Below, in pieces: positions 4,569 through 60,935 of a stretch of DNA of 64,000 nucleotides; the first letter of the stretch is position 1, and every line of letters begins with the position of its first letter. Below the pieces are notes generated by a model. It was not told the origin of the DNA, made no database searches, and was given only the letters and a program-made list of their open reading frames with translations. The stretch comes from Patescibacteria group bacterium (GTDB taxonomy: Bacteria > Patescibacteriota > Patescibacteriia > Patescibacteriales > WJLG01): the NCBI GenBank assembly GCA_041652555.1, contig JBAZHE010000001.1, forward strand, positions 2,847 through 66,846. The letters run 5' to 3'. A program made the translations under genes and the position numbers.

Positions 4569-4574
4569 TTTTAG

Positions 4575-4648
4575 TGGGCAATACTGGATTCGAACCAGTG
4601 ACCTTTACAATGTCAATGTAACGCTCTAACCAACTGAGCTAATTGCCC
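4575..4648 (-). tRNA. tRNA-Val (anticodon GAC)
   Basis: The reverse complement GGGCAATTAGCTCAGTTGGTTAGAGCGTTACATTGACATTGTAAAGGTCACTGGTTCGAATCCAGTATTGCCCA folds as a cloverleaf. Acceptor GGGCAAT/ATTGCCC, anticodon stem TTACA/TGTAA, loop TTGACAT, T-arm ACTGG-TTCGAAT-CCAGT. CCA is not encoded. Confidence 0.93.
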
Positions 4649-4664
4649 AAAATATAAATTGCTG

Positions 4665-4738
4665 TGCGTCCAGATGGACTTGAACCATCGACCCCAGCTT
4701 TATAAGAGCTGTGCTCTGACCAACTGAGCTATGGACGC
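4665..4738 (-). tRNA. tRNA-Ile (anticodon UAU)
   Basis: The reverse complement GCGTCCATAGCTCAGTTGGTCAGAGCACAGCTCTTATAAAGCTGGGGTCGATGGTTCAAGTCCATCTGGACGCA folds as a cloverleaf. Acceptor GCGTCCA/TGGACGC, anticodon stem CAGCT/AGCTG, loop CTTATAA giving anticodon TAT, T-arm GATGG-TTCAAGT-CCATC. CCA is not encoded. Confidence 0.88.
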
Positions 4739-10607: not shown

Positions 10608-10640
10608 AATTAATTTTTAGAATAACTATTTACACCCAAA

Positions 10641-10690
10641 AACACACCCCGTCGCGGATTACCGCGCCACCCCTCTTGCTAGAGGGGATT
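10641..10690 (-). repeat. GC-rich double-hairpin repeat, copy A (inverted orientation)
   Basis: Reverse complement: AATCCCCTCTAGCAAGAGGGGTGGCGCGGTAATCCGCGACGGGGTGTGTT. Confidence 0.85.
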
Positions 10691-10703
10691 AAAAGTTAAT
10701 TAT

Positions 10704-16315: not shown

Positions 16316-16386
16316 TCCCCTCTAGAAAGAGGGGTGGCTGGACCCAACGGGTCGCCTTTGGCGTACTCCGAGACGGAGTGTGTTTT
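16314..16386 (+). repeat. GC-rich double-hairpin repeat, copy B (expanded)
   Basis: AATCCCCTCTAGAAAGAGGGGTGGC[TGGACCCAACGGGTCGCCTTTGGC]GTACTCCGAGACGGAGTGTGTT. It starts inside the TAA stop of the upstream gene and ends 4 nt before the uvrB ATG. Confidence 0.85.
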
Positions 16387-46717: not shown

Positions 46718-46721
46718 TATT

Positions 46722-46812
46722 AATCCCCTCTAGAAATCTGTCTGTCCGGTAGGCAGGGAGGGGTGGTTCGGTACTCCGATTTATCCCGTTCGCTGGAGAC
46801 GGGGTGTGTTGT
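46722..46812 (+). repeat. GC-rich double-hairpin repeat, copy C (both loops expanded)
   Basis: AATCCCCTCTAGAAATCTGTCTGTCCGGTAGGCAGGGAGGGGTGGTTCGGTACTCCGATTTATCCCGTTCGCTGGAGACGGGGTGTGTTGTG. Confidence 0.8.
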
Positions 46813-48488: not shown

Positions 48489-48490
48489 TA

Positions 48491-48540
48491 AATCCCCTCT
48501 AGAAAGAGGGGTGGCTCGGTACTCCGAGACGGGGTGTGTG
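48491..48540 (+). repeat. GC-rich double-hairpin repeat, copy D (canonical)
   Basis: AATCCCCTCTAGAAAGAGGGGTGGCTCGGTACTCCGAGACGGGGTGTGTG. Hairpin 1 is CCCCTCT/AGAGGGG and hairpin 2 is CTCGG-TACT-CCGAG. Confidence 0.9.
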
Positions 48541-48570
48541 AAATTTAACACCTTTGCTATATATTCAGCG

Positions 48571-55210: not shown

Positions 55211-55233
55211 ATCCGACTTAATTAAGTCGGATT
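55208..55233. terminator. bidirectional terminator hairpin between convergent genes
   Basis: AAATCCGACTT-AATT-AAGTCGGATTT flanked by an A-run and a T-run. Confidence 0.7.
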
Positions 55234-56666
55234 TATTTTTGAAAAGTTTTTTTATCGCGTCGTTGTTTGTGAAAGGTTATGGCAAAACGATGCGCCTCGT
55301 CTCGAACACGCTTAATAATATGTAGAGCAGGGGAGGCCAGAGGGAGAACAAGAGGTTTTTTTATTTTTGGAAAGAAAATTCTGTCTGGCGCTTTAGCTGA
55401 GCGCAAGCCGTCACCCTTAGAAACCCCAAGTATTGGAATATCAAGCTTGAATTTCTTTAAAATAGCCAGTCCGGCATTAAGCTGCCCTTTTCCGCCGTCA
55501 ATAATTATTAAGTCAGGCAATGGCCAATTATTATTAAATCTTCTCTCTAAAATTTCTTTTAACATTCCCGTGTCATCACCTTTAGAAATTGATAATTGAT
55601 CATTGATAATTGAAGATTTAATCTTGAATTTCCGATATTGGCTTTTATCCGGTTCGCCGTTTTTAAAAACTACCATTGATCCAACAGCTTCTTGGCCAAA
55701 TAAATTAGAAATATCATAGCCTTCTATTCTTTGTGGAATTTTTGGTAGAGCAAGAATTTTTGCTAATTCCACCACGTCGGCGGCGTATTTTTCATGAACA
55801 CTTAAAACGTTAGAATGCGCTAAAACATTCCGCATCTGCAAAAGACGATATTTCAATTGCCGAATTTTTTCAGATATTAATTCCCCTCTTGAGAGGGGTG
55901 GCCCGTACTCGGGACGGGGTGTGTGAGGCTTGGTATCGGTTAAAAGTTTTTTTTGAAGATTGATAATTGAAGATTGAAAATTTTTCTCTATATCTTTCCG
56001 TCGTCCTTCCAAGAAGGCAATAATTTCTTTAATAATTTTTTTGTATTCAATAATGTCTGTTGGTGCGCCGTAGATTTCTGGATAACGGCGATTTTTTATT
56101 TGGCTATTTTTATTATCAGGCATTGTAGCAAATCTTCCGTAAGGAAAAATCTTGGCAATTGCTTTAATTGTTTCTCTGACTGCTCCACCAGAAGTAAACG
56201 GCCCGAAGTATCTTCCTGAGGAAATATTCCCCTCTTGAGAGGGGTGGCCCGTACTCGGGACGGGGTGTGTAAGGCCGTTAGGGGGAATTGTTTTTTTAAG
56301 ATTAACCCCAATTGTTCTAGTAGTTAAAATTTTTGGCCATTCGTCATTAGTAATTTTTATATAAAGATGTCGCTTGTCGTCGCGCATTATTATATTGTAA
56401 TCTGGTTGATATTTTTTTATTAAATTTGCTTCCAATAAAAGCGCTTCAATTTCCGAACCAACTTCTATCCATTTTATTTTAGCGATTTTTGTAAGCATGG
56501 ATTGCTTGGCTCCGCTTAATTCTGCGCTTTTACTCCAATACGAAAGCACCCGCGATTTAAGATTCGCGGCTTTGCCGACATAAATAATTTTGCCAGCTTT
56601 ATCATAATACTGATAAGACCCTGGCGTTGTCGGAAGATTAAGTTTCTTGACTTGTTCTAAATTCAT
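55233..56666 (-). CDS. uvrC: excinuclease ABC subunit C (short form lacking the C-terminal HhH domain)
   Basis: GIY-YIG N-terminus (PGSYQYYDKAGKIIYVGKAANLKSR), YFGPF and an RNase-H-like endonuclease region ending in VRDEAHRFAI. GGGGG lies 8 nt upstream of ATG 56666. Confidence 0.9.
   Translation of the reverse strand: MNLEQVKKLNLPTTPGSYQYYDKAGKIIYVGKAANLKSRVLSYWSKSAELSGAKQSMLTKIAKIKWIEVGSEIEALLLEANLIKKYQPDYNIIMRDDKRHLYIKITNDEWPKILTTRTIGVNLKKTIPPNGLTHPVPSTGHPSQEGNISSGRYFGPFTSGGAVRETIKAIAKIFPYGRFATMPDNKNSQIKNRRYPEIYGAPTDIIEYKKIIKEIIAFLEGRRKDIEKNFQSSIINLQKKLLTDTKPHTPRPEYGPPLSRGELISEKIRQLKYRLLQMRNVLAHSNVLSVHEKYAADVVELAKILALPKIPQRIEGYDISNLFGQEAVGSMVVFKNGEPDKSQYRKFKIKSSIINDQLSISKGDDTGMLKEILERRFNNNWPLPDLIIIDGGKGQLNAGLAILKKFKLDIPILGVSKGDGLRSAKAPDRIFFPKIKKPLVLPLASPALHIIKRVRDEAHRFAITFHKQRRDKKTFQK
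55880..55928 (+). repeat. GC-rich double-hairpin repeat, copy E (inside uvrC)
   Basis: ATTCCCCTCTTGAGAGGGGTGGCCCGTACTCGGGACGGGGTGTGTGAGG, translated on the minus strand as KPHTPRPEYGPPLSRGE. Confidence 0.9.
56226..56274 (+). repeat. GC-rich double-hairpin repeat, copy F (inside uvrC)
   Basis: ATTCCCCTCTTGAGAGGGGTGGCCCGTACTCGGGACGGGGTGTGTAAGG, identical to copy E over 45 nt. Translated on the minus strand as GLTHPVPSTGHPSQEGN. Confidence 0.9.
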
Positions 56667-56739
56667 ATTATTCCCCCTTCTTTGCAAGAAAAAATTAGTA
56701 GTGGTTAGATATTTAAAGTTTAGGCGTTATTATCTAAAA

Positions 56740-56808: not shown

Positions 56809-57633
<825 letters not shown>

Positions 57634-57778: not shown

Positions 57779-57873
57779 ACGTAGCGTAGCGTAGGGAGAA
57801 ATCTCTTGAAGTCTGTTGCTCACTTAAAGTTTAAGCGATTTCTCGCTTCGCTCGAAATGACGAGAAAATATGG
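57779..57873. repeat. second repeat family: imperfect inverted repeat with ~25-35 nt arms around a ~30-nt spacer
   Basis: Left arm TGTCATTTCGAACGTAGCGTAGCGTAGGGAGAAATC. Right arm GATTTCTCGCTTCGCTCGAAATGACGAG. It ends at the helicase start codon (57870). Confidence 0.7.
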
Positions 57874-60800
57874 AAAATAAAAAAACTCAATTAAATAAAG
57901 AACAAGAAGCGGCTGTTTTACATGGTCAGGGGCCACTTTTGATTGTGGCTGGGGCTGGAACCGGTAAAACTTGCGTTATTACTGAGCGCATTGTTAATTT
58001 GATTAATTCGGGGCTGGCGCAGTCTAGTGAAATATTGGCTTTAACTTTTACAGAAAAAGCTGCTGGGGAGATGGTGGAGCGCGTGGATAGACTTTTGCCT
58101 TTGGGTTATTATGATTTGAATATTTCCACTTTTCATTCTTTTTGTCAGGAAGTTTTGAATGATTCAGGTCTAGATATTGGTTTGCCGACAAATTTTAAAT
58201 TGTTAAATGAATTTGAACAGTATAGTTTATTTAAAAAACATTTAGACAGGTTTGGTTTGATTTACTATCAGCCAATGGGCAATCCGACCAAGTTTATCAG
58301 AGAAATTTTGAAGCATATTTCGCGTTGTAAAGATGAGGATATTACCCCTTTAGAATATTTGTGTTATGCCGAAGAATTACGACAGGACTTAGACGGAATG
58401 TTGGGTGCGGTGAAAGGTTCCAAGAAGGGGAAGAGTAATAATGTTTTTCTGAATTCCAAGGGAGAGTTTGATAGAGAGGTTGCTGAGCAAGAAGTTAAAA
58501 AAATTGAAGAGGTTGCAAACGCCTATCATATTTATCAGAATTTGCTCCTGGAAAATAATGCTTTGGATTTTGGTGATTTGATAAATTATTGTTTAAAACT
58601 TTTTCGTGAACGGCCAAATGTTTTGGAAAAATATCGCGCTCGTTTTAAATATATTCTTGTTGATGAATTTCAAGATACTAATTGGGCGCAATATGAATTA
58701 GTAAAAATGTTAGCCGCACCACAAAATAATATCACCGTCGTAGGAGACGACGACCAGAGTGTTTACAGATTTAGAGGAGCGGCGATGGCTAATATTTTAG
58801 AATTTAAAAAAGATTATCCTGATTGTCAGCAAGTTTTTTTGCGAGAAAATTATCGCAGTGCACAAGAAATTCTTAATTCTTCTTATGAATTTATTAAATT
58901 AAATAATCCTAATCGTTTAGAAGCGCAATTAGCCTCTGACGGCTCCGGGCTTTCAAAGAAATTAAAATCAAATATTTCCGATAAAGGCTTAATAGAAGTA
59001 ATTCGCGGAGCTGATATTGTTGATGAATTAGCGCGTGTAGTAAAAAAGATTGCTGATATCAAGACCGAAGACAAAGAAGCTAAATGGAGCGACTTTGCAA
59101 TCTTGGCTCGCGCCAATGACCCGGCTAAAGAAATTTGTTCTTATTTGGATGAAGCTGGTTTCCCTTATAAATTAAATTCTTCCCGCGGACTTTATGCTAA
59201 GGAGGAGATTTTAAATTCTATTGCCTACTTAACTGCTCTGTCTGATTATTACGATGGCGTGGCGCTTTACAAGAGTTTATCTTTGCCGGTTTTTGGTTTG
59301 ACAGTTGAGAATTTAACTACGCTTAATTATTTAGTTTACAAAAAAGGTTCCTCTCTTTATAAAATATTAAACGAAGCGGCGGCGATGGGGGTTGGCAGTG
59401 TTTGCTTGACTAAGGTTAATAAATTTTTAGCAGTTTTTAAAAAGCATTTGACTGAATTGCGTGAAAAAAGTGCAGGAGAAATGTTTTTGTCTTTTTTAAA
59501 TGATTCTGGTTATTTGAAATATCTTACTTCTTTGGGTGGCAGAAGAGAAGTAGAGGCGTCTAATCTTTTGAATCAGTTTATGCGCCGGATAAAAAGCTTT
59601 GAAGCTAATTCTGGCGACAAAAGTGTCCGGGCTTTTTTGAATGAGCTTTTAGTGGAGATTGAAGCTGGCGAACAAGGAACACTGCCTTTTGACGAGGGCG
59701 ATAGTCCTGATACCATAAAAATAATGACAGTTCATGCTTCTAAGGGTTTGGAATTTAAATATGTTTTTATTATAAATTTAATAGACAAGCGTTTTCCGTC
59801 TATTGAACGTAGTGAGTCAATAAAAATACCAGATGCGCTTTTGGATGAAAAATTACCAGAAGGGGATCATCATTTAGAAGAAGAACGCCGGCTTTTTTAT
59901 GTAGCAATGACCCGCGCAAAAAAAGGCTTGTATCTCTCTTGGTCATCGGATGCTGGCGGTAAACGTGAACGCCGAGCTTCTAGGTTTTTAGTAGAAACAG
60001 GATTAGTAGAAGATTTAACTTTAGAAAATTCTGAAGATGATAAAATAACTCCCCTCTTGGGAGGGGTGCCCGAAGGGCGGGGAGGGTTGCTCGAAGTGAA
60101 GCCTGTTGTTGAAGAAAAAAATAAAGAAGAAAAATTTATTCCAAAAGCTCCAGAAAGATTTTCTTATTCTCAATTTGCTGCTTACGAAAAATGTCCTTAT
60201 CAATATCGTTTTGCCAATGTTTTAAAAATTCCTGTCCACGGCAAACCATCTTTTTCTTTTGGAAAAACCATGCACGCTACTTTTCAAAAGATTCTTCAAA
60301 TAGTCCAACAAGCCGGAGAAAAAACCCAAGATAGCTTATTTAATGACCCTGCCGTAGGAACAGGGCACTGCCCTGTTCTGTCTTTAGAAGAGTGCTACAA
60401 AGTCTATGCCGAATCTTGGGAGGACGATTGGTATCCGTCAGAAAAATTAAAAGAAGAATATCGCGCCAACGGCAAAAGAATCGTCAAAGAATTTTACGAA
60501 GAACACAAAGACAACTGGCCAAAAGTTTTATTTTTGGAAAAAGGTTTTTCTCTACGAATGAAAGTTGATGGCGAAGGAATAACAATCGCCGGAAAAATTG
60601 ACCGTATTGACGAAACACCAGACGGAAAATTAAGAATTATTGATTACAAAACCGGCAGTCCAAAAGAAAAATTAACCTTTGAAGACAAAGCTCAGTTATT
60701 AATTTATCAAACAGCAGCTAAGCAATTTTTTCACCAAGAAGTTGGCGCCTTAGTTTTTCGCTACCTAGAAGACGGAAGCGAAATAGAATTCCTTGGCAAA

Positions 60801-60935
60801 GATAAAGACTTTGAAAAATTAGACGAAAAAATCTGCGAAGCAGTCCGTGCTATCCGCTCGGGTGAATTCCCACCCAAGCCGGTTATGTGCAAGTATTGCG
60901 ACTTTAACGGAATTTGTGAATACCGAAAACTTTAA
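57870..60935 (+). CDS. UvrD/PcrA-like helicase fused to a C-terminal PD-(D/E)XK (Cas4/AddB-type, Cys-cluster) nuclease
   Basis: Walker A AGAGTGKT, VDEFQDTN, VGDDDQSVYRFRGA and MTVHASKGLEF. C-terminal KCPYQYRF...GKIDRIDETPDGKLRIIDYKTG...CKYCDFNGIC. Confidence 0.88.
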   Translation: MENKKTQLNKEQEAAVLHGQGPLLIVAGAGTGKTCVITERIVNLINSGLAQSSEILALTFTEKAAGEMVERVDRLLPLGYYDLNISTFHSFCQEVLNDSGLDIGLPTNFKLLNEFEQYSLFKKHLDRFGLIYYQPMGNPTKFIREILKHISRCKDEDITPLEYLCYAEELRQDLDGMLGAVKGSKKGKSNNVFLNSKGEFDREVAEQEVKKIEEVANAYHIYQNLLLENNALDFGDLINYCLKLFRERPNVLEKYRARFKYILVDEFQDTNWAQYELVKMLAAPQNNITVVGDDDQSVYRFRGAAMANILEFKKDYPDCQQVFLRENYRSAQEILNSSYEFIKLNNPNRLEAQLASDGSGLSKKLKSNISDKGLIEVIRGADIVDELARVVKKIADIKTEDKEAKWSDFAILARANDPAKEICSYLDEAGFPYKLNSSRGLYAKEEILNSIAYLTALSDYYDGVALYKSLSLPVFGLTVENLTTLNYLVYKKGSSLYKILNEAAAMGVGSVCLTKVNKFLAVFKKHLTELREKSAGEMFLSFLNDSGYLKYLTSLGGRREVEASNLLNQFMRRIKSFEANSGDKSVRAFLNELLVEIEAGEQGTLPFDEGDSPDTIKIMTVHASKGLEFKYVFIINLIDKRFPSIERSESIKIPDALLDEKLPEGDHHLEEERRLFYVAMTRAKKGLYLSWSSDAGGKRERRASRFLVETGLVEDLTLENSEDDKITPLLGGVPEGRGGLLEVKPVVEEKNKEEKFIPKAPERFSYSQFAAYEKCPYQYRFANVLKIPVHGKPSFSFGKTMHATFQKILQIVQQAGEKTQDSLFNDPAVGTGHCPVLSLEECYKVYAESWEDDWYPSEKLKEEYRANGKRIVKEFYEEHKDNWPKVLFLEKGFSLRMKVDGEGITIAGKIDRIDETPDGKLRIIDYKTGSPKEKLTFEDKAQLLIYQTAAKQFFHQEVGALVFRYLEDGSEIEFLGKDKDFEKLDEKICEAVRAIRSGEFPPKPVMCKYCDFNGICEYRKL
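60048..60096 (+). repeat. GC-rich double-hairpin repeat, copy G (divergent, inside helicase gene)
   Basis: ACTCCCCTCTTGGGAGGGGTGCCCGAAGGGCGGGGAGGGTTGCTCGAAG, translated as TPLLGGVPEGRGGLLE. Confidence 0.7.

Follow-up and report, generated by a model that had tools for sequence, protein, structure and literature searches.

The uvrC gene studied here, from a tiny bacterium of the candidate phyla radiation (CPR), contains, within its open reading frame, two almost identical copies of a GC-rich repeat. This raises the question of what the repeat is, how it came to lie in a conserved gene, and how the protein accommodates it. The locus was considered in the context of the whole stretch of DNA analysed, 64 kb in length, referred to below as the window.

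Two copies of one repeat in uvrC

The features of the locus are the following; R1 denotes the covariance model of the element.
55233-56687, minus strand: host ORF, identified by Pfam as UvrC (GIY-YIG, 3.8e-07; UvrC_RNaseH_dom, 6.3e-50)
55233..56666, minus strand: uvrC of the short CPR type, 477 aa from the ATG at 56666
55879..55926, plus strand, antisense to uvrC: element copy A (R1 53.3 bits, E 4.9e-15)
56225..56272, plus strand, antisense to uvrC: element copy B (R1 54.0 bits, E 3e-15)
56273..56306, plus strand: rest of insert 1, residues V121-N130 (VNLKKTIPPN)

An earlier note on this DNA had described two repeats, identical over 45 nt, inside a minus-strand uvrC, and the exact search, shuffles and Pfam all bear this out. 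The 45-mer ATTCCCCTCTTGAGAGGGGTGGCCCGTACTCGGGACGGGGTGTGT has exactly two occurrences, 55880-55924 and 56226-56270, and none in 100 shuffles; the similarity extends to 49 of 50 nt (55880-55929 vs 56226-56275), the copies start 346 nt apart, and each 50-nt copy is bordered by unique sequence. The further claim that the same DNA is translated in two different frames also holds, as the codon offsets at the copy starts are 1 and 0, the resulting peptides being TPRPEYGPPLSRGE and THPVPSTGHPSQEGN. Frame translation agrees with the note in that all three frames are free of stops in the minus direction; a TGA is present in one frame of the plus direction.

Copy A corresponds to insert 2 (UvrC residues about 247-263, peptide PHTPRPEYGPPLSRGEL), and the peptide of copy B, GLTHPVPSTGHPSQEGNI, is the core of insert 1. 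What is left of that insert, ...CAATTCCCCCTAACGGCC... on the minus strand at 56273..56306, may, judging by its letters and speculatively, be a degenerate inverted second terminus of the element. The lengths of both inserts are divisible by three, 84 nt for insert 1 and about 45 nt net for insert 2, and the predicted junction peptides are NGLTHPVPSTGHPSQEGNISSGR and KPHTPRPEYGPPLSR. The two uvrC copies are the closest relatives of each other, and hence local copying or gene conversion within uvrC is suggested.

The source is a metagenome-assembled genome (MAG), where misassembly of short repeats is possible, and thus the pair might be an assembly artefact, or uvrC might be a dead pseudogene. 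However, a separately assembled JGI contig (L262), whose reads may be common with the MAG, has 100% identity along 2744 nt, both copies among them, and the flanks at each copy are unique. The uvrC ORF is intact, with the GIY-YIG and RNase H endonuclease domains present, the HhH domain absent, and the invariant residues retained. We regard an artefact or a dead gene as extremely improbable.

A different possibility is that the inserts are absent from the mature protein, either because they are cut from the mRNA or because the ribosome bypasses them. GC clusters and 'byp' elements, GC-rich hairpins of some yeast mitochondria, spread in an AT-rich genome and occur within protein-coding genes. The setting here is similar, GC-rich hairpin inserts in an AT-rich genome, and the RNA hairpins are stable (about -17 kcal/mol). 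However, the ribosome skips 'byp' elements, while both uvrC copies are open in the used frame and the inserts have lengths divisible by three, neither of which is demanded by bypassing; the in-gene copies in other genomes are open in frame as well. The hosts and sequences are unrelated, and a search of Rfam 15 at permissive E-values with one canonical copy yielded no family under E=2 and no ribozyme or intron family. Removal or bypassing of the inserts is therefore very improbable.

Positions of the inserts in the UvrC protein

The alignment of 29 orthologues shows that the two segments are lineage-specific insertions that most orthologues do not have, in accordance with what the note had proposed. 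Insert 1 comprises residues 121-148 (56223-56306 in the window), and site 1 is empty in 27 of the 29 orthologues. Site 2 is a variable loop. Two orthologues, P0002 and P0026, have inserts at sites 1 and 2; whether these are orthologous or independent insertions is judged from the peptides. In the two UvrCs bearing an insert at site 1, the UvrC_M Pfam match is lost.

In the AF2 model, insert 1 coincides exactly with the segment 121-148 of pLDDT below 50, and insert 2 forms the predicted loop 244-259, which caps a helical hairpin made of helices 223-243 and 260-284. On the model, the segments are thus located in predicted loops, one disordered (low pLDDT) and one at the hairpin tip, in line with the suggestion of surface loops. 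One copy had been placed in the region of the UVR hairpin. Pfam finds no UVR domain in this UvrC, and hence this placement is based on the alignment and on the structure model. The inserts are presumably translated and harmless.

Structure of the element

The element is a double-hairpin repeat, 48-50 nt long in its uvrC form, and copies range from 35 to 90 nt. Each end consists of hairpin 1 (TCCCCTCT-loop-AGAGGGG), a linker, in many cases with a variable second hairpin, and the box GGGGTGTGT. Hairpin 1 has two loop-length classes, and the covariation test was applied to an alignment of 39 sequences from a single class. Four of the five pairs of stem 2 change on both sides, 98% of cells pair, compared to about 50% in slid controls, and the covariation score was matched by none of 500 shuffles. 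Hairpin 1 and the GGGGTG boxes do not vary in the alignments, as the search pattern demanded them. At the RNA level, copies fold better than shuffles in some orientations (z-scores -2 to -4.3). In the whole window, two tRNAs alone reach the Rfam 15 gathering score.

Other copies in the window

The window contains seven copies: four intergenic, two in uvrC, and a degenerate one in a gene of a UvrD-like helicase, so that three of the seven lie within ORFs. The copies outside uvrC are listed below; the neighbours pheS, UvrB and RRF were identified by Pfam.
10640..10691, minus strand: canonical copy in the intergenic DNA ahead of pheS, at a distance of 12 nt and in antisense orientation to the gene (R1 64.3 bits, E 1.4e-18)
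16317..16383, plus strand: intergenic copy whose stem 2 encloses an additional hairpin of 31 nt (R1 36 bits, E 1.8e-09)
46721..46811, plus strand: intergenic copy with split R1 matches, 46721-46774 and 46781-46811
48490..48541, plus strand: canonical intergenic copy (R1 63.2 bits, E 3.2e-18)
60047..60097, plus strand, sense: degenerate copy in the UvrD/PD-(D/E)XK helicase-nuclease ORF 57870-60935 (R1 21.7 bits, E 7.2e-05 for 60047-60089)

The second of these ends 6 nt ahead of the uvrB start codon, with a run of T. The copy at 46721..46811 has canonical 5' and 3' ends, with extra hairpins nested in loop 1 and placed after stem 2. The copy at 48490..48541 begins 2 nt past the stop codon of frr, the ribosome recycling factor gene. 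The helicase copy has 66% identity to copy A over 50 nt and encodes TPLLGGVPEGRGGLLEV, flanked by the helicase C-terminal and nuclease domains. The statement of the note that the element also occurs in intergenic DNA is correct for these four copies, with the refinement that they are related to the uvrC pair and none is identical to it.

Such positions could be expected if the double hairpin had a function in the host, by ending transcription, stabilising mRNA or binding a protein; copies flanking the nuclease genes described below would then regulate or insulate a potentially toxic nuclease, and the in-gene copies would be accidental. Stem 2 covaries, and therefore the hairpin itself is under selection; the RNA folds, where they beat shuffles, point the same way, as does the location of window copies at gene boundaries, that is, at the frr stop (2 nt), the uvrB start (6 nt) and pheS (12 nt). 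On the other hand, the orientation relative to neighbouring genes is inconsistent, the 3' T-run is missing from most copies, and no Rfam family matches. An intrinsic terminator, in particular, was rejected because of the inconsistent orientation and the mostly missing T-runs.

Neither a nuclease nor a transposase gene adjoins any copy in the 64-kb window, and a tblastn search of it for a DUF559 gene yielded none. This is what would be observed for an orphan selfish palindrome, enzyme-less and lineage-specific, similar to the Rickettsia palindromic elements (RPEs) and spread by host recombination or replication slippage; the in-frame insertion in unrelated genes agrees with the published behaviour of RPEs as well.

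We also considered a link to nucleotide-excision repair, as copies occur at uvrB, in uvrC and in the UvrD-like helicase gene, and a 'UvrA' cluster appeared in 12 loci. The latter consists mostly of unrelated ABC ATPases, with two true UvrA, and hence the idea was dropped. Permissive loops explain the recurrent uvrC insertions more simply.

Distribution across genomes and genes

An exact pattern with 27 specified nucleotides was found in at least 119 stretches from MAGs belonging to over 15 phyla, with no Rickettsia among the hosts. Among the matches listed, the hosts include Negativicutes, Verrucomicrobiota, Ignavibacteria, Planctomycetota, Aminicenantes, Desulfobacterales, CPR and others. The view of the repeat as an orphan of this lineage is thus not borne out, as the motif is present in many phyla and is tied to DUF559. 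The spread of the family between phyla likely proceeded by horizontal transfer.

Insertion in genes recurs in CPR, where further canonical copies lie in frame. Another CPR uvrC has a canonical copy (64.6 bits) at a site different from those used here, and weaker copies are found inside two further CPR uvrC genes. Copies within domains were observed elsewhere in ValRS, TGT, a Mur ligase and OGG. Across genes, the element is read in at least three combinations of frame and orientation.

No presence/absence polymorphism was found among the near-identical metagenome contigs compared, and these contigs yielded no empty-site/filled-site pair. The polymorphism that was seen is a 179-nt copy-number change in a tandem array between contigs L160 and L167, which recombination alone could yield. 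Separately, contigs L179 and L171 differ by a 155-nt palindromic indel unrelated to the element.

Association with DUF559 genes

Clustering of ORFs showed DUF559 genes in eight of the 119 listed loci. Four of the eight have copies on both sides of the gene, inverted in three cases, and three more have a copy at one end. Five flanked genes score 91.7-122.4 bits with PF04480 (DUF559), the gathering cut-off being 20.6 (E 1e-26 to 1e-36), and their Pfam matches are PF04480 and PF18741 only. Complete units were read in nucleotides in one CPR genome and one Pelosinus.

A further sample was formed by 80 metagenome loci, chosen by the DUF559 protein alone and blind to the element. The element is situated within 200 nt of the DUF559 gene in 76 of these 80 loci, a result that covers this subfamily and not every DUF559, since the profile that these loci matched best was derived from genes accompanied by the element. 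The density of the element is 5.7 per kb near the gene vs 0.088 per kb elsewhere, an enrichment of about 65-fold. The arrangement is directional: in 49 of 59 loci, the copy closest to the gene on its upstream side has the same strand as the gene, and in 46 of 55 the closest one downstream is inverted, the median gaps between gene and copy being 29 nt upstream and 17 nt downstream. The DUF559 genes are intact in nearly all of the 80 loci, with zero copies inside them. Tandem or alternating arrays of the element occur next to DUF559 genes.

We identified 27 distinct complete units, 431-585 nt long, each with a DUF559 gene of about 110-125 aa between inverted ends. The TCCCC end of each terminus points outward, and none of the 27 units is surrounded by a target-site duplication. 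More distant DUF559 genes (about 40% identity), carried by two closed cyanobacterial plasmids of Pseudanabaena and Picosynechococcus, also have hairpin repeats on their flanks, analogous to the element yet different from it; those of the Pseudanabaena plasmid are 97-100% complementary. When compared with PDB, the DUF559 profile retrieves 3HRL (2.8e-23) and the homing-endonuclease domain 3R3P (6.5e-4). Among PD-(D/E)XK proteins of such size, none is known as a lone transposase.

The tight, directional linkage to DUF559 and the occurrence of the family beyond one lineage argue against an enzyme-less orphan palindrome, making it quite improbable. They also bear on a function of the hairpin in the host, for which it would be unexpected that one primary sequence is kept over more than 15 phyla, along with a single small accessory gene bearing inverted copies at its ends, and many copies per genome with tandem arrays of changing number are the product expected of a selfish repeat. 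We consider a host function unlikely, if slightly less so than the orphan palindrome.

The open-access papers and bioRxiv preprints searched contained no descriptions of repeats flanking DUF559 genes or of in-frame repeats in CPR. This agrees with the remark in the note, whose author was not aware of such behaviour being characterised for this kind of organism, and the DUF559-carrying element is apparently undescribed.

Proposed origin of the uvrC repeats

The uvrC repeats are probably solo terminal repeats of a very small mobile element encoding DUF559, similar to the REP/RAYT systems. The complete element, 0.43-0.59 kb, consists of a gene for a DUF559 endonuclease (PF04480; Vsr/PD-(D/E)XK-fold) between two inverted structured ends. 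Solo ends are strewn at about one per 10 kb in the genomes carrying the family, in parallel to the scatter of REP sequences in genomes with a RAYT transposase. In a gene-dense, AT-rich CPR genome, some copies would insert into coding sequence, and these would be retained only if the length is a multiple of three, the frame is free of stops and the site is in a surface loop. The DUF559 protein presumably recognises and cuts the ends and drives their copying, by nick-and-repair, homing-like copying or hairpin-directed transposition.

A wider reading, which we put forward more tentatively and which falls somewhat short of probable, is that DUF559 proteins of this type may be the mobilising nucleases of an unrecognised class of minimal autonomous elements (about 0.45-0.6 kb). 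These elements, with one Vsr-fold endonuclease of about 120 aa flanked by structured inverted ends, would be among the smallest self-contained prokaryotic elements and would form a second, independent REP/RAYT-like system, built on PD-(D/E)XK and not HUH, with solo ends dispersed across many phyla and routinely adding loops to essential CPR proteins.

If this is true, DUF559, a very large family that has been without a known role for decades, gains a testable function and a DNA substrate of about 35-50 nt, and the combination of an enzyme with dispersed hairpins would have evolved more than once, the second time on an unrelated nuclease fold. It would explain some of the odd Pro/Gly/Arg-rich insertions behind the variation of protein length and the disturbed domain annotation in CPR, and provide a natural experiment on loops that accept 15-30 extra residues in any of several frames. 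For practical purposes, the covariance model could be used to mask these elements in gene calling and alignment of CPR genomes.

Comparison with known systems

The RPEs measure about 150 bp and occur in Rickettsia alone, and no enzyme is known to accompany them (Ogata 2000; review, PMC10969869). Like them, the element is palindromic and resides in a reduced genome, in frame in unrelated housekeeping genes (uvrC twice, helicase, ValRS, TGT, Mur ligase, OGG), at positions compatible with the fold. It differs in its occurrence in many phyla, in the link to a nuclease gene and in length, the copies of 35-90 nt being below the roughly 100-150 bp of RPEs, which encode a conserved peptide. Hence the earlier comparison with RPEs is valid in part, for tolerated in-frame insertion, the use of two frames and the presence in intergenic DNA, and fails for the length and the orphan status.

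The MITEs are also short and non-coding, derive from the ends of an enzyme-encoding element and at times are fused in frame to host ORFs. However, they have two terminal inverted repeats and a target-site duplication, whereas the solo copies here represent a single end, and none of the 27 complete units is duplicated at its target. The parent element is not known to belong to a recognised insertion-sequence family. It shares hairpin ends and the absence of target duplication with the IS200/IS605 type, but its enzyme is not a Y1 transposase.

The associated protein belongs to the same fold clade as Vsr, the EDxHD homing endonucleases, e.g. I-Bth0305I (PDB 3R3P), and DUF559 3HRL. The homing endonucleases are likewise selfish and horizontally transferred. 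However, their genes are located in introns or inteins or are free-standing, with no terminal inverted repeats, and Vsr is a repair enzyme present in single copy; dispersed solo repeats are known for neither.

The closest parallel is provided by REP/REPIN sequences and RAYT (Nunvar 2010; Bertels and Rainey 2011, PMC3116915). In both systems, short GC-rich, imperfectly palindromic hairpins occupy many sites (seven in the 64 kb here) and flank one small nuclease-type gene, the repeat sequence co-varies with the gene subfamily, solo or doublet copies far outnumber the gene, and tandem clusters are found beside it. As for inverted doublets of the REPIN type, the window copies are singlets, and alternating arrays are seen beside DUF559 genes. 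The differences are that the enzyme is a DUF559 endonuclease of the PD-(D/E)XK/Vsr fold and not a Y1 HUH (IS200/IS605-like) transposase, that the element sequence is conserved across phyla, and that a sizeable part of the CPR copies is intragenic, whereas REPs are extragenic by definition. Still, the architecture of the element is nearer to REP/RAYT than to RPE.

The repeat pair in uvrC and other copies in the window

The 45-nt string described in the earlier note as an exact duplication within uvrC has exactly two occurrences in the window, 55880-55924 and 56226-56270 (0 of 100 shuffles match this), and the identity of the two copies extends to 49 of 50 nt. Both lie in the minus-strand ORF 55233-56687, identified by Pfam as UvrC from its GIY-YIG and UvrC RNase H endonuclease domains. 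The copies begin at different codon positions, and the same DNA is indeed read in two frames, as THPVPSTGHPSQEGN in one copy and TPRPEYGPPLSRGE in the other. Translation of all frames confirmed that none of the three in the uvrC direction contains a stop codon; the opposite direction has TGA in one frame. A separately assembled JGI contig is 100% identical across 2744 nt including both copies, and hence an assembly artefact is unlikely, though the reads may be common to both assemblies.

Repeat finding and the covariance model of the element (R1) yield seven copies in the 64 kb.

Element copies in the window
10640-10691, minus strand: 64.3 bits with R1; intergenic, pheS 12 nt downstream of the copy
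16317-16383, plus strand: 36 bits; intergenic, uvrB 6 nt on; stem 2 holds an extra nested hairpin
46721-46811, plus strand: split R1 hits; intergenic, nested extra hairpins
48490-48541, plus strand: 63.2 bits; intergenic, frr stop codon 2 nt before
55879-55926, plus strand: copy A, 53.3 bits; within uvrC (insert 2)
56225-56272, plus strand: copy B, 54.0 bits; within uvrC (insert 1)
60047-60089, plus strand: degenerate copy, 21.7 bits; within the ORF of a UvrD-like helicase-nuclease, encoding TPLLGGVPEGRGGLLEV

Four copies are intergenic, in agreement with the earlier observation. The consensus is AATCCCCTCT-loop-AGAGGGG-TGG-[stem 2]-(G)ACGGGGTGTGT, with a GC content of about 64% against about 36% in the window. 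No matching family was found in Rfam; the E-values of the element model are rough, coming from a shortened calibration. The uvrC copies share their loop and stem 2, unlike every other copy in the window, and thus are each other's closest relatives. Their near-identity points to a recent local copy or gene conversion.

The helicase ORF (57870-60935) also contains, at 60358-60378, a second GC-rich near-perfect palindrome, GAACAGGGCACTGCCCTGTTC, encoding AVGTGHCPVLS and unique in the window; it is possibly an inserted copy of another hairpin family. Adjoining uvrC, the minus-strand ORF 56809-57633 (274 aa, hydrophobic N-terminus, no Pfam match) carries a 167-nt tract of GCC/GCN triplet repeats at 56963-57129, a local GC peak encoding a long Ala/Val-rich run (AAVAAAVAAVAAAAV...). 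At 4574-4738, tRNA-Val(GAC) neighbours a tRNA-Ile with the TAT anticodon. The latter is unusual in bacteria, where AUA is normally read by a modified CAU anticodon.

Insertion sites in the UvrC protein

A protein from a "Patescibacteria group bacterium" MAG matches the window UvrC at 100% identity; the relatives of the window protein are UvrCs of the candidate phyla radiation (CPR), whose baseline length is about 420-435 aa. We aligned 30 sequences, the window protein and 29 orthologues. The suggestion that the repeats encode lineage-specific loop insertions is well supported at site 1, between TTRxI(D) and (K)SGRYFGPF, which is empty in 27 of the 29 orthologues; here the window protein has 28 extra residues (V121-I148). 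The AlphaFold2 model (mean pLDDT 75) falls below pLDDT 50 over just one long segment, 121-148, exactly insert 1. Site 2 lies in a loop of variable length that connects two conserved helices; the window UvrC exceeds an insert-free orthologue (P0004) there by about 15 residues. Insert 2 is modelled as the non-helical segment 244-259, linking helices 223-243 and 260-284. Both inserts are predicted to be translated as part of the UvrC protein.

Other Pro/Gly/Arg-rich inserts occur at the same few hot spots in many orthologues. Two CPR UvrCs (P0037 and P0095, from loci L201 and L200) have an identical 13-aa insert, QGELRSKRGCPGA, after LKK(L/I), and inserts of the TTPxPSLxRRG or PLLERRG type follow RKFKIK in many sequences of the alignment. 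These inserts resemble what other hairpin families of the form CCCCTCC...GGAGGGG would encode, and CPR UvrC has probably been remodelled by several repeat families. The CPR proteins (55233-56666 in the window, and orthologues; about 420-435 aa) stop directly after the RNase H endonuclease domain, so the (HhH)2 domain found at the C terminus of canonical UvrC is missing from them. UvrB of the window, at 607 aa, is likewise short and terminates inside the C-terminal UvrB motif (residues 561-597).

Distribution and structure of the element

The element is not specific to this lineage. Scanned against the species-representative genome collection, the exact pattern, with 27 specified bases, matched at least 119 stretches. 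The matches listed include MAGs labelled Pelosinus, Lacunisphaera and other Opitutaceae, Ignavibacteria, Kuenenia, Anammoxibacter, Aminicenantes, Sumerlaeota, Desulfobacterales, Cloacimonadota, Zixibacteria, Gemmatimonadales and Bacteroidota, and, from the CPR, Falkowbacteria, Magasanikbacteria, Roizmanbacteria, Saccharibacteria and Paceibacterota. A looser form is present on 56 stretches of predicted viral contigs (IMG/VR, L203-L258, e.g. L213, L241, L245), some with many copies (14 in the 10-kb L213), so phages or prophages could ferry the family between hosts.

The hairpin is under selection. Stem 2 varies between copies in sequence and length, but pairing is always kept. In an alignment of 39 sequences, both sides change in four of its five pairs, 98% of cells pair, compared with about 50% for slid partners, and the covariation score was reached by 0 of 500 shuffles. 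The invariance of hairpin 1 and the G-rich boxes in the matches carries no weight, as the search pattern fixed them.

Association with the DUF559 gene

Clustering of all ORFs of the 119 pattern loci revealed one recurrent small protein, in 8 of these loci, assigned by Pfam to DUF559 (PF04480, E-values 1e-26 to 1e-36). The element is on both sides of the gene in four of the eight loci, inverted in three, and at one end in three more. A complete unit, read at the nucleotide level, lies between two host genes in L083 (Magasanikbacteria, CPR) in the order AATCCCCTCT...GGGGTGTGT, 18 nt, ATG...DUF559...TAA, CACACCCC...AGAGGGGATTT; a Pelosinus locus (L113), read likewise, has the same layout.

To test the link independently of the element, 80 metagenome loci were fetched by the DUF559 protein profile alone and then scanned with the element model. 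In 76 of the 80 an element lies within 200 nt of the gene. A copy is present upstream in 59 of 78 loci and downstream in 55 of 77, with both sides occupied in 38; the nearest upstream copy is on the gene strand in 49 of 59 cases, the nearest downstream copy inverted in 46 of 55, and the median gaps are 29 and 17 nt, respectively. The density is 5.7 copies per kb near the gene and 0.088 per kb elsewhere in the 80 loci, with none inside the gene; this background, about one copy per 11 kb, is like the window's one per 9 kb. The uvrC repeats belong to a structured-repeat family that forms the inverted ends of a DUF559 gene unit and whose solo copies are dispersed through the genome. The 64-kb window itself contains no DUF559 gene.

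In all, we identified 27 different complete units, 431-585 nt in length, with a minimal end of about 35 nt made up of hairpin 1, a short linker (e.g. ATTT) and AGGGGTGTGT; stem 2 and additional loop-1 hairpins are nested modules that an end may have or lack. None of the 27 units shows a target-site duplication, and near-identical metagenome contigs yielded no empty-site/filled-site pair. Between two contigs 99.8-99.96% identical (L160 2570-3000, L167 2605-2860), the tandem array just downstream of the DUF559 gene differs in length by 179 nt of additional element copies, which indicates that such arrays change quickly. In another near-identical pair (L179 1790-1944, L171 4200-4235) a 155-nt long-stem palindrome, GAGGTTGTCTCGAAAG...CTTTGAGACAGCCTC, unrelated to the element, replaces the other contig's 36 nt; it is a different mobile hairpin element.

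The association reaches beyond this subfamily and beyond MAGs. Closed plasmids of the cultured cyanobacteria Pseudanabaena and Picosynechococcus carry DUF559 genes with an identity of only about 40%, and these genes are flanked by inverted hairpin repeats that share the element's design but not its sequence, none detected by R1; those of Pseudanabaena are 97-100% complementary (e.g. AAGTCCCCCAGAATTGGGGGATTTAGGGGGC). On a plasmid of Photobacterium sp. GJ3 (L261, 810-1129), the hairpin CCTCCCCCTTGAAAAGGGGGAGG occurs three times in direct orientation, at about 148 nt spacing, downstream of a DUF559 gene, another variant of the gene-repeat link.

Against PDB, the DUF559 profile matched 3HRL, an uncharacterised "endonuclease-like protein" (2.8e-23), and 3R3P, the catalytic domain of a group I intron homing endonuclease (6.5e-4), consistent with PMC3424549, which places DUF559 together with Vsr.

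In-frame copies in other genes

Among 131 pattern hits, Pfam verified genuine insertions within a domain for four genes: ValRS (L011) and a Mur ligase (L090) of one MAG that is labelled Nanoarchaeia yet has bacterial-type genes, tRNA-guanine transglycosylase of a Saccharibacteria MAG (L082) and an OGG glycosylase of a Bacillota MAG (L059). Coding insertions are found in 3 of 9 CPR-type loci compared with 1-2 of about 110 others, small numbers with uncertain taxon labels. Further CPR uvrC genes contain a canonical copy at a third site (L200, 64.6 bits, codons ~310-327), a sense-oriented copy at a fourth (L202, 32.7 bits) and two degenerate copies, of which one is at the position corresponding to site 2 (L201). 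The in-gene copies use both orientations and several frames; they are in frame, stop-free and in predicted loops. The family is generally given to inserting in frame, most of all in CPR genomes.

In two CPR genomes (L200 5338-5491 and the P0026 contig) genes with the 23S_rRNA_IVP/bAvd domain lie two genes from uvrC; bAvd is an accessory protein of diversity-generating retroelements.

Possible mechanism and comparison with known systems

Judging from linkage, the DUF559 nuclease would recognise the ends by two conserved boxes, CCCCTCT/AGAGGGG and GGGGTGTGT, displayed on a hairpin or cruciform, and would then nick the ends and so promote the copying not only of complete units but also, in trans, of solo ends. 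The lack of target duplication argues against a DDE-type mechanism; both hairpin-directed single-strand transposition and repair-mediated copying would be compatible with it. Insertion itself is probably not restricted to loops, with only harmless insertions surviving, and almost no spacer DNA in the genome would expose more genes.

The open-access papers and bioRxiv preprints searched describe neither DUF559-flanking repeats nor in-frame repeats in CPR proteins, and to our knowledge the parent unit belongs to no recognised insertion-sequence family. With a single end and no duplication, the solo copies differ from classical MITEs and are not counted among them. In architecture the closest known system is REP/REPIN-RAYT (PMC3116915); however, its defining enzyme is a Y1 transposase, replaced here by an unrelated fold, and hence the element is not a member of that family. 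In behaviour the closest are the Rickettsia palindromic elements (PMC10969869), and the likeness drawn in the earlier note stands for in-frame insertion into genes, whereas size, host range and the associated gene, here DUF559, all differ.
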